Origin: Nitrospirota bacterium
GTDB taxonomy: Bacteria; Nitrospirota; Thermodesulfovibrionia; Thermodesulfovibrionales; Dissulfurispiraceae
Reading direction: 5' to 3'
DNA: 64,000 nucleotides
NCBI GenBank assembly: GCA_963790025.1
Contig: CAWBMP010000004.1
Coordinates: 1,344,001-1,408,000, forward strand
Shown piece after piece: positions 5,677 through 23,505 of this stretch. The notes beneath the pieces were generated by a model, which was not told where the DNA came from, did not search any database, and saw only the letters and a program-made list of their open reading frames with translations. Position numbers and translations under genes: made by a program. Every line of letters begins with the position of its first letter. The stretch's first letter is position 1.

Positions 5677-6764
5677 TGCAAGGGTCGCATGGCGGAAATA
5701 TTTACCGGGCTGCCGAAAAGCTGGGAGTAAACGAGTACGAAATAATTGATTTCAGTGCTTCCATCAACCCTCTCGGCGTTCCTAAAAGTGTGTTATCCGG
5801 CATAAAGGATTCGATGAGATACCTCTATAACTATCCCGACCCCGATGCAAAGCAATTCACGCGCGCCCTTGCCGGGCACTTTGCAATCAACCCGGAATCC
5901 ATCCTTTGCGGAAACGGCAGCACAGAACTCATTTACCTCGTCATTAGGGCCCTAAAACCGGAAAGAATACTCATCCCGGCTCCCACATTCTCGGAATACG
6001 AGCAGGCGGCGGGCGATGGCAGGGAAATCGTCCATTACGCGCTCAACGCAAGGGACAACTTTGCAGTAAACCCGGACTCATTCATCGCCGCGATGGCCGG
6101 AGGCTCTGACTCAACGTCTTACAAGACTTCGCTCACAACTTCTGTCGATATGACATTTTTATGTAATCCGAACAATCCTACCGGGGGCATAACAAGAAAG
6201 ACCGATATGCTGAAAATAGCCGAGGCCGCGCGGGAACTTAAATGTCACCTCGTTATTGATGAAGCATTTATTGATTTTACACCTGATGAGTCACTGATAA
6301 ACGAGGTTGAGGACAACCCCTACCTTATTGTTCTCAGGTCCCTGACAAAGTTCTATGCCCTTTCAGGCTTGAGGGTCGGATACGGTGTTTTCCCGCTGAC
6401 GCTGATAGATACAATAAGAAAGCACAAGGAACCGTGGACAGTGAATACGCTTGCACAAGTGGCGGGGATTGCCGCACTCAAAGACGAGACATATAAAGAA
6501 GACGCATTCAAAATCATAAAAAACGAGAGAAAAACCCTCGAAGACGGATTCAGGCTATTGAAGATACCTTATTTCCCGTCGGCTGCCAATTTTTATCTCA
6601 TACAATTCGATAAGACCCGGGACGTTATCAACGCCCTCAGTGAAAAGGGTATTCTTTTAAGAGATTGCTCGAATTTCAGAAACCTTGACGGATCGTATGC
6701 CAGGGTAGCGGTAAAATCGAACCGCGATAACATGCGACTGCTGAAGGAAATGGCAAACATATGA
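5676..6764 (+). CDS. cobD: threonine-phosphate decarboxylase
   Basis: HGGN, DFSASINP, CNPNNPTG, DEAF, RSLTKFYALSGLRVGY (PLP lysine). Confidence 0.93.
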   Translation: MQGSHGGNIYRAAEKLGVNEYEIIDFSASINPLGVPKSVLSGIKDSMRYLYNYPDPDAKQFTRALAGHFAINPESILCGNGSTELIYLVIRALKPERILIPAPTFSEYEQAAGDGREIVHYALNARDNFAVNPDSFIAAMAGGSDSTSYKTSLTTSVDMTFLCNPNNPTGGITRKTDMLKIAEAARELKCHLVIDEAFIDFTPDESLINEVEDNPYLIVLRSLTKFYALSGLRVGYGVFPLTLIDTIRKHKEPWTVNTLAQVAGIAALKDETYKEDAFKIIKNERKTLEDGFRLLKIPYFPSAANFYLIQFDKTRDVINALSEKGILLRDCSNFRNLDGSYARVAVKSNRDNMRLLKEMANI

Positions 6765-8227
6765 ACAGCCTAGTAATAGCGGGCACACATAGCGGCTGCG
6801 GCAAAACAACCGTAACCCTTGGGCTTCTCGCTGCACTCAAAAAAAAGGGGTTGGAGGTCCAGCCGTTCAAGGCAGGGCCTGATTTCATAGATACAGGGCT
6901 TCACCGCCTCATTACCGGCAGGCCTTCAAGAAACCTGGACCTGTGGATGTGTGGGGAAAAAGCCGTGTTTGAGTGCTTCAAAACGCACACGGCCCATGCT
7001 GACATAGCTGTTATCGAAGGAGTCATGGGGATGTATGACGGAGATTTCAGCACCGCAGATCTGGCGTCCATTCTAGGTCTGCCTACAGTCCTTGTTGTCG
7101 ACGCATACGGAATGGCGGAAAGTGCCGGGGCGATTGTCAGAGGCTTTGCCTCTTCCGCGCTGCTTGCCGGCGTTATTTTCAACCGCGTGGCGTCGGATAC
7201 CCACTATGAAAGACTTAAAAGCAGTGTCCGCGATGTCCCAGTTTTAGGATATCTGCCAAGGGACCTGGATTTCGAGATGCCGCATCGTCATCTTGGTCTC
7301 GTCGTTGCCGAGGAAATACCCATCGGCGCGGATCGTATCGACAAGCTTGCAGATACTGTATTAAGTCATATCGATATCAATGCAGTTGTTTCGCTATGTC
7401 AGCAGTGTAATGAAGGATGTGTCTCTGTAGCGAATCGCGGAGTCTTGCAAACAGTTCTCGGCGAAGAGAGCGTTAAACAGTCGCAATGTTTGAGCTCGCA
7501 GAGCGAGTTTTGCGACTGTAGCGAACGAGCCGTTAGAACTGTCAAGACGGAGCGTCTGAGCGTAAGAGACATATCCTTCATTACACCACCGCACGTTCTA
7601 AAACTGGCGGTTGCTTATGACAAGGCGTTCTGTTTTTATTATGTAGATAATCTGGACCTCCTCAGGGAGGCCGGAGCCGAAATTGTTTTCTTCAGCCCTC
7701 TTTCCGACCATCAGGTCCCTGCAGACTCGGATGCCCTCTATATAGGGGGCGGATATCCGGAATTATACGCTGAAGCTCTTTCCGGCAACTCCTCTATGCT
7801 TGCTTCCGTAAATGCCTGGGCCAGTTCAGGCAAGCCGGTCTATGCCGAATGCGGCGGCCTCATGTATCTTTCAAAAGGCATCCATGATTTCGATGATAAC
7901 TTTTTTAGAATGGCAGGAGTATTCCCTTTTAAGACACAAATGAGGAAAGGGAGGTCACATCTGGGATACAGGGAAATAATGCTCGAAAAAGACTGTATTC
8001 TTGGTAAAAAAGGGGACAGGCTCAGGGGACATGAATTCCACTATTCGGAGATCGTTGATAGCGCTTTAGCCCTTAATCGTATATATTCAGTCTGCGACAA
8101 GTTCGGCCAGGAGCTTCCGGACGAAGGCTACCTGTTTAAAAATACTCTTGCAAGTTATGTTCACCTTCACTTTGCAGGCAACAGGCCAGTTGCAGAAAGT
8201 TTTATAACACACTTAAAGGAGAAATAA
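6761..8227 (+). CDS. cbiA: cobyrinate a,c-diamide synthase with a ~60-aa in-frame repeat-derived insertion
   Basis: SGCGKTT, FKAGPDFID, EGVMG, RHLGL, AECGGLMYL, GHEFHYS; insertion lies between synthetase and glutaminase domains. Confidence 0.94.
   Translation: MNSLVIAGTHSGCGKTTVTLGLLAALKKKGLEVQPFKAGPDFIDTGLHRLITGRPSRNLDLWMCGEKAVFECFKTHTAHADIAVIEGVMGMYDGDFSTADLASILGLPTVLVVDAYGMAESAGAIVRGFASSALLAGVIFNRVASDTHYERLKSSVRDVPVLGYLPRDLDFEMPHRHLGLVVAEEIPIGADRIDKLADTVLSHIDINAVVSLCQQCNEGCVSVANRGVLQTVLGEESVKQSQCLSSQSEFCDCSERAVRTVKTERLSVRDISFITPPHVLKLAVAYDKAFCFYYVDNLDLLREAGAEIVFFSPLSDHQVPADSDALYIGGGYPELYAEALSGNSSMLASVNAWASSGKPVYAECGGLMYLSKGIHDFDDNFFRMAGVFPFKTQMRKGRSHLGYREIMLEKDCILGKKGDRLRGHEFHYSEIVDSALALNRIYSVCDKFGQELPDEGYLFKNTLASYVHLHFAGNRPVAESFITHLKEK
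7405..7586. mobile_element. 182-bp palindromic MITE-like element, copy 1, in frame inside cbiA
   Basis: 22-bp terminal inverted repeats 7405-7426 / 7565-7586 (21/22 match); inverted second copy at 9348-9535. Confidence 0.85.
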
Positions 8228-8234
8228 CCCCGGT

Positions 8235-9299
8235 ATGGATGAGAGCATTATACTTATAGGCCATGGCAGCCCGAGAAAAGACGCAAACAACCTCGAACTA
8301 ATAGCGACAATGCTGCACAGCATGCTTCACCCAGGATGCAGCAGCGAGTGCGTAACGTCTTCCTATCTTCAATTCGCAGAGCCCGATATTATGAAGACCA
8401 TTAAGGGCAGCATAGAGAGCGGCGCAAAGAGGATTATCCTTCACCCCTTCTTTCTGAATGCCGGGATGCACGTTACCAAAGATATTCCCGAATTGATCAA
8501 AGAGGCCGGGGAGTTGTTCCCAGGCGTGGAATTTATTTACACGGAGCCGCTCGGCATACACGAAAAACTGGTCCAGATAGTTATGGAGCGCATCAGCTCA
8601 GCATCGGTCTGTTCCCGAAAAGGCACAGACTTTTCAGCGTTAGACAGCAAATTGGCCCCTGAAGAGATAGAAAGAAAGAGTTTTGAAATACTCTCGGAGG
8701 AACACGACTTGAGCAGTGTTCCGTACGATCAGCTTCCGATAATCCAGCGGGTCATCCATGCTACTGCCGATTTCGAATTCAAAGAAACACTTGTCTTTCA
8801 TCCTGATGCGGTTGCTGCCGGTATCAAGGCGATAAGAGAAGGTAAAAACATTCTTACTGATGTCGAGATGGTCAGGACCGGTATCAACAAACGGCTTCTT
8901 GACCGATGGGGGGGCAAGGTTGTTTGCGCCATTGCGGATGAACACGTGGCCCGTGAATCAAAAGAAACAGGCAGAACGCGTGCTGAAATTGCCATTGAGA
9001 AAAGAATCGGTGAGAACGTCGGAATCATCGCTGTCGGCAATGCTCCGACCGCCCTTTTGCGTGTTATAGAACTCCTCAGGGACACTTGCTGCTCATCGAC
9101 GGCCCCTTATAATTGCCATGGGGCGCCTCTGGTAATCGGCGTGCCGGTGGGTTTTGTGAAGGCGTTCGAGTCAAAAGCCATACTTGCAGGACAGGAGTTC
9201 CCGTTTATAACAAATCTGAGCAGAAAAGGCGGGACACCCGTTGCTGTAGCGATTGTGAATGCACTGCTCAAGATGGCTTCGGAGGGGAGTACAGAATGA
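8235..9299 (+). CDS. cbiXC: fusion: short CbiX cobaltochelatase domain + cobalt-precorrin-8 methylmutase (CbiC)
   Basis: N-term IGHGS...LQFAEP...PFFL..GMHV..DIP; C-term RVIHATAD, GNAPTAL, PVGFV, RKGGT. Confidence 0.9.
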   Translation: MDESIILIGHGSPRKDANNLELIATMLHSMLHPGCSSECVTSSYLQFAEPDIMKTIKGSIESGAKRIILHPFFLNAGMHVTKDIPELIKEAGELFPGVEFIYTEPLGIHEKLVQIVMERISSASVCSRKGTDFSALDSKLAPEEIERKSFEILSEEHDLSSVPYDQLPIIQRVIHATADFEFKETLVFHPDAVAAGIKAIREGKNILTDVEMVRTGINKRLLDRWGGKVVCAIADEHVARESKETGRTRAEIAIEKRIGENVGIIAVGNAPTALLRVIELLRDTCCSSTAPYNCHGAPLVIGVPVGFVKAFESKAILAGQEFPFITNLSRKGGTPVAVAIVNALLKMASEGSTE

Positions 9300-9838
9300 T
9301 ACGGAGAAACGGCGACACTGGAACACGGCAAATCTGCAAATCATACAGTGTAATGAAGGCTGTGTCCCTTCCGCTCAGGCGCTCCGTCTTGACAGTTCTA
9401 ACGGCTCATTCGCTACAGTCGCAAAACTCAACTACTACCGCAAAAAATCTTCGATATTTTCGGGGACCCCTGACTTCGCCGAGAACTATTTGCATGACTC
9501 CTCGATTCGCTCCAGAGAAACATCCTTCATTACACTTATTGTGTTGCAGTTTGCTGTTTCTTTTACTGCTTACTTATTACTGTTTACTGCCTGCTCCTGT
9601 TTCTGCCTCCGATAAATGGCAAGGGGTTGATGAATCGGTTGTCGAGAAATACGCCAAAGAGCATGGCAGAGAAGCGGTTAAACCATTGATCAACATTGAA
9701 CAGGGAGACCTCCCCCTCTTTTTGTTTCTCCTTGCAGGGACCGCTGGAGGATTTGCAGCAGGATATTACTGGAGAAAACTTACTGAACCAGGTGACGGGA
9801 ATAAAACAAAAGGGGCAAAGGAGGGTCCCCAAAAGTAA
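9296..9838 (+). CDS. CbiN-like small cobalt ECF transporter component; N-terminal ~80 aa are repeat-derived and the true start is uncertain
   Basis: GGAGGG RBS and ATGA overlap with cbiC stop; signal-like hydrophobic stretch, WQGVDESVVEK, C-terminal TM (LFLFLLAGTAGGFAAGYYWR); directly upstream of cbiQ. Confidence 0.7.
   Translation: MIRRNGDTGTRQICKSYSVMKAVSLPLRRSVLTVLTAHSLQSQNSTTTAKNLRYFRGPLTSPRTICMTPRFAPEKHPSLHLLCCSLLFLLLLTYYCLLPAPVSASDKWQGVDESVVEKYAKEHGREAVKPLINIEQGDLPLFLFLLAGTAGGFAAGYYWRKLTEPGDGNKTKGAKEGPQK
9348..9535. mobile_element. 188-bp palindromic MITE-like element, copy 2 (opposite orientation)
   Basis: GTGTAATGAAGG...CCTTCATTACAC ends; arms match the reverse complement of copy 1 (76/82 and 57/62); different 44-bp core. 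Confidence 0.85.
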
Positions 9839-21076: not shown

Positions 21077-22387
21077 TTGACAAAGCCTGATTGTAATATT
21101 GCCCTCTTCTGGGATGAGTCCTTTCTCTGGGGATTAATGGCTTATAAGGCGTTAAAGGCCGCATGCCTTCCTTTCAAGCTGATTTGTGCAGAAGATATCA
21201 AAAAGGGTGTCCTTGGGGAATACAGACTTCTTTTCGTTCCCGGCGGGTGGGCCTCAAACAAAATCAAGACGCTCGGTACCGATGGGATTATTAAAATAAA
21301 AGCATTTGTCGGCAACGGCGGCAATTACCTCGGCTTTTGCGGCGGTGCAGGGCTTGCGACACTCGACGGCATAGGACTGCTGAATATCAGAAGAAAACCT
21401 ACAAAAGAGCGGGTCCCGAGCTTCAGCGGGAGGATACGCCTTAACCTGTCTGAACACAGTATATGGCACGGTATCACAGAGCCTGTGTTCCACGCGTGGT
21501 GGCCCTCGCAGCTTGTCCTGGAAGATAAGTCTATAAGAATTCTGGCGACCTATGGAGACGCCTTGCCCGACTCATTTAGTTCAGACTTAAACGTCGGCGA
21601 TATTGGGACCGGCGGCAACTGGGTGGAGATGGAAAAAACCTACAAGATTAACCTTGATCCCCTGCGGCTGAATAATGAGCCTGCTGTTGTCGAGGGCGGC
21701 TATGGCAAGGGAAAAGTCTTGCTCTCGTTGGTCCATTTTGATACACCCGGTGATGCAAACGGCACTGTCGTGCTGAAAAATATATGGCACTATCTTGCTC
21801 CGTGTTTTCCTGTCTCCGTGTCCCAGAGTCGGAGTCCCCGAGAAGTCCTTCGACTTTTTGGCGCAGGTCTCCGTGTCGGGGTCCCAGCGTCGGGGTCCCC
21901 GAAAAGTCCTTCGACTTTTTGGCGCAGGTCTCCGTGTCGGGGTTCACAGACTTCCAGGCTGTTTTCTGAATTCGAATCGGCAGTCGATGATCTGATTGCT
22001 CTTGGCGAGCTGAATTTTATCTGGTTCCGGAGAAACGATATGCTTTTACAATGGCGGAGGGGAGTAAGGGGGCTCGAATACTGTACCTTGAATATATTAA
22101 TAAAAGAAATATCGCAAATTATAAAAAACCGGGGTATTGACCCTTCAGGCATTGCCGATTGCGCATTAAGGATTAATGAATTGCTCGTCCCTTTTGTCGA
22201 AAAGGCAAAGCATCTTCTTATTCTGGAAAGAAATGCTTTGCATAATGGGCATATCACCTATGAAAAGTGTGACGACCCCGAAATCCGGAAAATAAGAAGC
22301 GAGCTTTTTTCCAACTCGAAAAGCTATGGAGGATTATTTAAAGAGCTGATAGATGAGGTTGATGCGCTTTTGTACTCGCTCCTTTAA
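21077..22387 (+). CDS. BPL_N/GATase1-like domain protein with in-frame repeat insertion
   Basis: VPGG, GGNYLGFCGGA, YGKGKVLL..VHFD; helical C-terminal domain; TTG start. Confidence 0.7.
   Translation: MTKPDCNIALFWDESFLWGLMAYKALKAACLPFKLICAEDIKKGVLGEYRLLFVPGGWASNKIKTLGTDGIIKIKAFVGNGGNYLGFCGGAGLATLDGIGLLNIRRKPTKERVPSFSGRIRLNLSEHSIWHGITEPVFHAWWPSQLVLEDKSIRILATYGDALPDSFSSDLNVGDIGTGGNWVEMEKTYKINLDPLRLNNEPAVVEGGYGKGKVLLSLVHFDTPGDANGTVVLKNIWHYLAPCFPVSVSQSRSPREVLRLFGAGLRVGVPASGSPKSPSTFWRRSPCRGSQTSRLFSEFESAVDDLIALGELNFIWFRRNDMLLQWRRGVRGLEYCTLNILIKEISQIIKNRGIDPSGIADCALRINELLVPFVEKAKHLLILERNALHNGHITYEKCDDPEIRKIRSELFSNSKSYGGLFKELIDEVDALLYSLL
21812..21943. repeat. 61-bp tandem duplication (two copies, 21820-21880 / 21881-21941) inside a CDS
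   Basis: GTCCCAG.GTCGG.GTCCCCGA.AAGTCCTTCGACTTTTTGGCGCAGGTCTCCGTGTCGGG repeated with period 61. Confidence 0.9.
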
Positions 22388-23325: not shown

Positions 23326-23505
23326 GAAGAGGCAGTGGGTCAGTTTGTTTTTTCTCTGGCTCAAATAGTCTTTTCTATCCAATCACAGGCATGTACTGAA
23401 GATTATCTGACAGCCACTTCTTAATATGTGGGCTGGGCGGTTACCAGCCCACTGTTGAGAACCCGGGTGATCCAGAGCAAAAACAAACTGACCCACTGCG
23501 TCTTC
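23326..23505. mobile_element. 180-bp intergenic element with 38-bp terminal inverted repeats (MITE-like)
   Basis: 23326-23363 vs 23468-23505, 35/38 complementary; internal hairpin GTGGGCTGG..CCAGCCCAC. Confidence 0.7.

Follow-up and report, generated by a model that had tools for sequence, protein, structure and literature searches.

The DNA studied here, referred to as the window, is a 64,000-nt stretch of the genome of a Nitrospirota bacterium (assembly GCA_963790025.1, contig CAWBMP010000004.1, positions 1,344,001 to 1,408,000), and our subject is a palindromic, rod-like repeat that occurs in it twice, in opposite orientations, once within a cbiA/cobB gene (copy 1) and once within a small membrane-protein gene (copy 2). 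The features of the locus are given below in window coordinates, with their strands (IS, insertion sequence; TIR, terminal inverted repeat).

6761..8227, + strand: cbiA/cobB gene, with CbiA and GATase_3 domains and a hypervariable linker in which relatives carry other repeats
7405..7586, + strand: copy 1, a full rod of 182 nt that lies in frame within cbiA (residues 216-276)
7405..7426, + strand: left arm of copy 1, a 22-nt inner inverted repeat (the TIR of the first-pass annotation)
7477..7519, + strand: apical stem-loop of copy 1, with a GCTC-GCA-GAGC tip
7565..7586, + strand: right arm of copy 1, inner inverted repeat
8235..9299, + strand: cbiX-cbiC fusion gene, whose stop overlaps ATG 9296
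9296..9838, + strand: small membrane-protein gene before cbiQ, 'CbiN-like' by position, with ATG 9296 as its likely start
9334..9349, + strand: remnant of an outer IS-type terminal repeat at copy 2, 14/16 to CTGCAATTCAGACAGT
9348..9535, − strand: copy 2, 188 nt, its native tip lost and a nested module in its place
9435..9470, − strand: GGGGTCCCCGAAAA...TTTT hairpin module nested in copy 2, a small repeat in its own right, with approximate boundaries
9534..9549, − strand: degenerate partner of the outer repeat at copy 2, 11/16, with no target duplication seen

The positions of the two copies, their inverted orientation and the identities of their arms (57/62 and 76/82) had been read from the letters alone and prove exact; the 22-nt inverted repeats of copy 2 fall at 9348-9369 and 9514-9535. 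The rod-like fold suggested at the same time is borne out for copy 1, for which an RNA folding check gives −96.2 kcal/mol (z = −10, equalled by 0/200 shuffles), while the fold of copy 2 is weak when the + strand is taken (z = −2.1) and improves when its own strand is used (−60 vs −44 kcal/mol). Against 1000 dinucleotide shuffles, the stop-free frames also stand, with three in copy 1 (P = 0.004; shuffle mean 0.36) and two in copy 2 (P = 0.046). Searched with the Rfam 15 models, neither the element in the window nor any of 10 distant loci gives a match.

The repeat within host proteins

Copy 1 is indeed an insert in the inter-domain linker of CbiA, lying between the CbiA and GATase_3 domains. 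An AlphaFold model (22 orthologues) is confident for both CbiA domains, with residues 219-275 below 50 in predicted local distance difference test (pLDDT) score, and residues 196-285 hold no invariant column among the 22 orthologues. Measured between two anchor motifs, the linker spans 69-129 residues in 22 of the 25 loci read (three were not parsed), and the longer linkers of relatives carry unrelated tandem or palindromic repeats, as judged by eye. In-frame copies of the element are present in cbiA of three species; in G005 and G007 the element occupies the same place but is reversed relative to copy 1, so that the encoded peptides differ and are unrelated between species.

Copy 2 had been taken for the N-terminus of its protein, but instead occupies codons 18-81 of a 180-aa frame that opens at ATG 9296, which is preceded by GGAGG and overlaps the cbiX-cbiC stop. 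It precedes the hydrophobic segment of the protein, and translation through it is likely because orthologues of the gene show the same start arrangement, with short variable leaders ahead of that segment. The label 'CbiN-like' comes from gene order only; the protein has no Pfam or NCBIfam match. The gene directly follows cbiX-cbiC in the window, with two CbiM matches elsewhere in the genome (C4:438107 and C3:66471), and in relatives it follows a gene that we take to be cbiM. Half of a GGGTCCCC module lies in its final codons (9823-9836).

Copy number and placement

The element had been proposed to be a non-autonomous, multicopy family spread through this lineage, and this is supported: the genome carries 11 full copies (178-188 nt) along with several that are partial and four or five collapsed forms of 58-61 nt, a covariance model scores 14 matches in it, and blastn finds the element in 13/41 relatives and, in a phylum sample, in its own family only. 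By inspection of open reading frames (ORFs), seven of the full copies are intergenic, one is placed just upstream of a gene for which orthologues have their start downstream of the element, two are N-terminal leaders (of the small membrane gene and of a DUF3108 gene) and one is internal, in cbiA. Coding tolerance, offered earlier as the defining trait, is not supported by this count, as just 1/11 copies lies inside a conserved coding region and 2/11 are leaders. Leader copies read in frame are found across genomes in CbiN-like, DUF3108 and UPF0261 genes, and element copies also sit in tight operon gaps, beside start and stop codons. A gene flanked by rods on both sides in G308 and G132 (L399, L408) is presumably argH.

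These placements bear on the view taken in the first-pass annotation, that the element resembles the Rickettsia palindromic elements (RPEs) and is shaped for in-frame insertion with a modular peptide cargo. The open frames do exceed those of shuffles, in-frame copies recur in cbiA and in the leaders named above, and the reverse strand is open in 55 of the 91 copies that we compared (80 copies from 8 relatives, taken from the stronger blastn rows, plus the 11 of this genome). The forward strand, however, is open in just 7/91, core lengths occupy all three modulo-3 classes, 7/11 copies in the genome are intergenic and the opposite orientations at the cbiA site give unrelated peptides; present counts point to coding insertions no commoner than chance open frames allow, and we consider this view very improbable. 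The best reading is that protein insertion is tolerated and is not the purpose of the element.

One further setting was observed in G004 (once in G002), where the rod lies within a repeated, ~600-nt non-coding unit that also comprises AT-rich, promoter-like stretches and a different hairpin repeat; transposases are not seen near the loci of this unit (L092, L095, L096, L099, L100, L103 and L084).

A structure-conserved rod in two phyla

The covariance model widens the range found by blastn to 47/150 genomes of the order (9/13 families, with up to 19 scored copies each) and 27/150 genomes of the phylum. The rod is not confined to Nitrospirota, as a Syntrophus record genome holds 18 matches and 15/150 genomes of its phylum are positive. 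A plain MAFFT alignment of 38 copies reveals 24/39 pairs that change on both sides, which 0/500 shuffles reach, and all 33 pairs do so among 76 model-aligned loci, where the alignment leans to the model. The pairing is strongly strand-biased, with 76 G.T cells vs 7 A.C cells and 26 vs 7 pair-types, and one strand folds better in 91/91 copies as RNA and in 88/91 as DNA. Stems are kept paired by compensatory change, the purine-rich loops and the tip, which follows a G-N-A triloop pattern in 69/91 copies, are conserved in sequence, and it is on one strand that the fold counts. An effect of host mRNA does not account for this bias, since the better-folding strand is mostly antisense to co-directional neighbours (33 of the 49 loci classed, out of 76, by a crude ORF rule); it is in the antisense orientation that frames are open. 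Two rod variants stand head to head in a ~300-nt composite repeat in a different class of the phylum (L437-L445, L452-L454).

An outer shell shared with a DUF6788-DDE insertion sequence

An outer repeat, CTGCAATTCAGACA(GT), traced here by its 16-mer CTGCAATTCAGACAGT, is present at both ends of 40/91 copies, at one end of 11 and at neither end of 40. A duplication-like flank of 8-11 bp accompanies 20 of the 40 copies that have this complete shell, as compared to 0.3% of cross-paired flanks. The 22-nt repeat previously taken for the transposon end is in fact an inner stem, and its paired copies in five relatives, exact or with one mismatch, all lie 182-223 nt apart. The A/T bases flanking this inner repeat were considered as a duplication and rejected, being part of the outer repeat. 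The flanks of copy 1 match the outer repeat at just 8/16 and 6/16 positions, i.e., no shell is left, and no target-site duplication is seen at either window copy.

Scanning GTDB contigs with the 16-mer yields no fewer than 125 loci and leads to elements of 2.2-2.5 kb with the outer repeat at both sides; Nitrospirota and Dissulfurispiraceae bins are among the named shell-bearing records listed. Seven full-length elements encode a DUF6788 protein and a DDE_Tnp_1-type transposase, the latter with a split frame in one of them; a 9-bp duplication is perfect in two of the seven, two others show a 9/10 match and the remaining three lack one. The best NCBIfam score of this transposase is 33 bits vs a cut-off of 115, below every IS-family cut-off, and a profile search places it in 9/401 genomes of the phylum, in four with both ends in the locus. 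We infer the partner of the shell from its ends, because no such transposase is found in the source genome, in 41 relatives or in 34 genomes of the family. This shell is also found around unrelated cores, of which there are at least three.

Outside the genus, the shell is present at 6/76 rod loci, outer stems are wholly different between lineages and a perfect duplication of at least 6 bp flanks 0/26 rods. At L468, the rod lies in a different repeat shell, which we take to be another IS end, with a 7/9 duplication-like flank. The interior of the rod is better kept than its ends, and the ~150-nt inner rod is older than the shell.

One account of the shell would be that the element is a plain MITE (miniature inverted-repeat transposable element) of the DUF6788-DDE IS, with pairing as a by-product of palindrome-templated mutation and the shell-less copies old and eroded. 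The exact 16-bp shared ends, the 8-11 bp duplications, empty orthologous sites and outer-repeat remnants on several copies of the genome (including the 14/16 match at copy 2) all agree with it. This account is unlikely, however, as templated mutation, which gives Watson-Crick pairs on either strand, would not lead one to expect 76 G.T vs 7 A.C, the better-kept interior is the reverse of a decaying MITE, and the rods found in other families and in another phylum differ wholly in their outer stems and show no duplication, that of L468 lying in a different shell altogether.

Several related observations were made in the course of these scans. DDE_Tnp_1 matches in five genomes (13 matches) were rejected as candidates, none being related to the shell transposase by tblastn; the 21 viral matches of the 16-nt outer repeat look like chance, and neither the element nor the IS matches a plasmid. 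The IS group (L222:2501-4744, L330:1246-3670 and L332:128-2518) carries the DUF6788 gene upstream of a 520-590 aa DDE transposase; its 16-bp end is nearly invariant across several phyla, and no NCBIfam IS family fits it. Internally deleted derivatives include L256:2501-3226 (726 bp, with the DUF6788 gene alone kept) and L340:995-1831 (837 bp), and a Microcoleus record (L281) contains tandem 126-nt units that each start with the same IS end. The window has another 180-nt hairpin at 23326-23505, with 38-nt inverted ends and −96.8 kcal/mol, whose tip resembles a second core found within the same IS shell in relatives (L152, L155 and L157).

Flips, collapses and replacements at shared sites

Ten sites are occupied in at least two genomes, and both orientations are encountered at six of them. 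At C5:266715/L111, the source genome (G000) and G005 carry the same private variant, flipped between unchanged asymmetric flanks; the flanking genes are, from their motifs, presumably lexA-like and dinB-like. This copy differs between the two species at 5/178 sites vs 37/114 four-fold sites of the flanking genes. Other shared sites show subtype replacement or collapse to 59-61 nt. At many rod sites relatives have no insert, or instead carry heptamer fold-backs or a different palindrome, which suggests shared hot spots for unrelated small repeats. The heptamer fold-backs or other palindromes at rod sites of G000 differ from relative to relative (L369-L373, L360, L356-L359).

The two copies had also been described as having a swappable, modular core. 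Interiors do get exchanged, but the core of copy 2 is a nested second repeat and not unrelated cargo: its central 44 bp correspond to a separate hairpin repeat of ~36-42 nt, which stands where the native tip was lost. This GGGGTCCCCGAAAA hairpin has 19 motif matches in the genome, some as tandem arrays, and lies within 5/80 copies of relatives and the cbiA copy of G005 (copies with the nested module: L085, L089, L090, L124, L125 and L022). One shared site has the nested module in one assembly and lacks it in another (L345 vs L076). The same module, GGGGTCCCC, is also found outside the rod:

21812..21933, + strand: two tandem 61-nt units with the GGGGTCCCC module

It is also tandem at G000 C4:712340-712508 (five 42-nt units) and enters several other repeats.

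The slow divergence of the flipped copy, together with the tight-gap placement beside start and stop codons, could be explained by a domesticated cis-acting RNA, such as an mRNA stabiliser or RNase III site, that is kept in operon gaps and whose mobility is historical; MITE hairpins act on mRNA in other bacteria (PMC2229807). We judge this improbable, given that the very copy so conserved is flipped between the two species, that the better-folding strand is antisense in 33/49 classed loci and that relatives have unrelated repeats, or nothing, at the same sites. The least probable explanation is that flips and subtype swaps are assembly artefacts of metagenome-bin repeats, in which case the repeat family itself would still be real. 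All sources are assemblies, and contig L344 joins flanks of two different sites, but the flipped pair comes from genomes of 5 and ~60 contigs and has in common private indels that other sampled copies lack, the best of these matching at 92%, and a public contig (maybe from the source sample) agrees without a mismatch across the junction with cbiA and over the initial 48 nt of copy 1.

A two-layer reading of the element

Structure conservation, strand bias, ends in common with an IS, duplications around shelled copies, flips, collapses, nesting and in-frame residence that is tolerated are all on record, and we find it probable, if with modest confidence, that this is a two-layer element, a structure-conserved rod partly captured by an IS shell, of which the window copies are survivors. 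The first layer would be a rod-shaped fold-back repeat of ~150-190 nt common to Nitrospirota and the phylum of the Syntrophus genome, which most likely spread first via a single-stranded intermediate, with an HUH/Y1-type enzyme as the most likely agent. As a second layer, many rods of this genus would have become enclosed by the 16-bp ends of a DUF6788 + DDE (IS4-superfamily-like) IS and moved as MITEs with 8-11 bp duplications, presumably mobilised in trans by the DUF6788-DDE enzyme. After landing, the outer ends erode, and the hairpin flips between its 22-nt inner repeats, collapses to 59-61 nt, gains a second small hairpin or is overwritten by another subtype, plausibly through template switching and break repair off paralogues. 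Both processes are established behaviour of palindromes. Tight operon gaps are where copies last, and in rare cases they do so in frame, within leaders or floppy linkers.

Several results weigh against this two-layer reading. The shell-family transposase is found in 0 of the source genome, 41 relatives and 34 family genomes (incomplete assemblies may hide it), just 6/40 shelled copies have perfect target duplications, and three of seven full-length IS have none. No gene-carrying long rod is found among 20 regions around partial model matches, which are rod variants between ordinary genes as judged by eye from N-terminal sequences. None of the 11 Y1 HUH genes of the source genome, which other repeats flank, is seen to have the element within 350 nt, and none of the 76 rod loci has an adjacent Y1 gene, with a single locus at which Y1 lies ~870 nt off and another gene intervenes. 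The conservation of the flipped copy (5/178 vs 37/114) is not well explained by a selfish repeat, and the two different sites flanking the copy on metagenome contig L344 belong to G002. Copies are related, such that their counts are not independent, and all genomes are assemblies in which repeat interiors may be mis-joined.

A further, tentative possibility is that the inner rod belongs to a class of single-strand mobile units that spans phyla and has a mobiliser of its own. This enzyme would recognise, on one strand, the conserved loops and the G-N-A tip, and would target hairpins already present (IS ends, terminators or earlier copies) in either orientation, so that the rod would hitch-hike on several unrelated transposase systems. 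If true, this would explain fixed-site replacement, unrelated outer stems and conservation far above that of synonymous sites, and would offer a handle on how RPE-like palindromes move. The inner repeat gives no autonomous element: it has 0 viral matches, and its four metagenome matches are three short elements and one contig end; half-rod patterns likewise have 0 viral matches.

What is useful here is the anatomy, i.e., an interior conserved in structure in two phyla, a shell with an unclassified candidate transposase, and sites that record flips, collapses and replacements. Separable parts make mobilisation directly testable, and the part worth testing is the conserved, strand-biased interior that rides in different shells; the protein insertions are ordinary. 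The rods also carry a warning for annotation, as they give Nitrospirota proteins long linkers and spurious extensions at the N-terminus.

Relation to known repeat families

The repeat family is real and apparently undescribed; no description of it was found in the literature searched, outside which most subscription papers fall. The RPEs are 100-190-nt stem-loops that can insert in frame and are near neutral for the protein (PMC2229807), with nearly half described as lying in ORFs (PMC10969869), and one Geobacter multicopy family inserts in genes on both strands with no frameshift (PMC2996986). Because in-frame insertion of palindromic repeats is already known, the headline of the first-pass annotation is a new example and not a new principle. 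Judged from descriptions and not from sequence, the element resembles RPEs as a long stem-loop with terminal inverted repeats and in-frame insertions, but is mostly intergenic (one internal and two N-terminal copies of 11) and has a candidate transposase end for part of the family.

Like a MITE, the element is short (178-188 nt), encodes no transposase and is multicopy (11 full copies). It shares a TIR with an autonomous IS through the outer repeat in 40/91 copies (a remnant at copy 2, none at copy 1) and not through the inner repeat; a cognate transposase is missing from its genome and lineage (0/41 relatives and 0/34 family genomes, with 9/401 in the phylum). Among fold-back MITEs (Chunjie, Correia/NEMIS, YPAL and RUP), to which it is similar in size, it works like Chunjie of Geobacter uraniireducens, a stably folding element of 178-235 bp that has TIRs of 21 bp and direct repeats of 9 bp and in places overlaps genes (PMC3184786), and like Correia, for which inversion is reported (PMC10969869); RUP shares its TIRs with an IS (PMC2229807). 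It differs from these in that the interior is the conserved unit, present in two phyla with and without a TIR shell and with strand-biased pairing, and is set apart from Chunjie by description, not by sequence. The 'multicopy nucleotide sequences' of Geobacter bemidjiensis and G. metallireducens, palindromic families clustered in the same intergenic gaps (PMC2996986), work similarly (PMC2996986, PMC2700814); none of six element motifs occurs in 12/15 and 12/19 supplementary files of the Geobacter papers, where alignments given as pictures would be missed.

The shell partner resembles the IS4 superfamily (IS4, IS701, IS982, IS1380 and IS1182) in its DDE_Tnp_1 domain, in ends that start with C and in 9-10 bp duplications, but carries a DUF6788 gene and falls far below NCBIfam cut-offs; 'DUF6788' is absent from the papers searched.

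With the REP, REPIN and TIR repeats that accompany RAYT or TIRYT genes, the element has in common a strand-specific, imperfect hairpin, intergenic and multicopy occurrence and no target duplication in most lineages; it is, however, much longer, has no GTAG or CGTC foot and flanks none of the 11 Y1 HUH genes (PMC6006769 and PMC3733652 for the known repeats). The source genome has 11 Y1_Tnp matches, and the inner repeat is similar to one Y1 end, GGGACACATCCC, over 10-12 nt (seven matches), which is a lead only. Its Y1 HUH genes (C2:336999, C5:249450, C4:1215216, C4:751959 and others) have short inverted repeats at their ends (GGGGTCAG.., GGGACACATCCC and GGGACGG..), and several occur in near-identical copies; these genes with their ends resemble the TIRYT elements described in PMC3733652.

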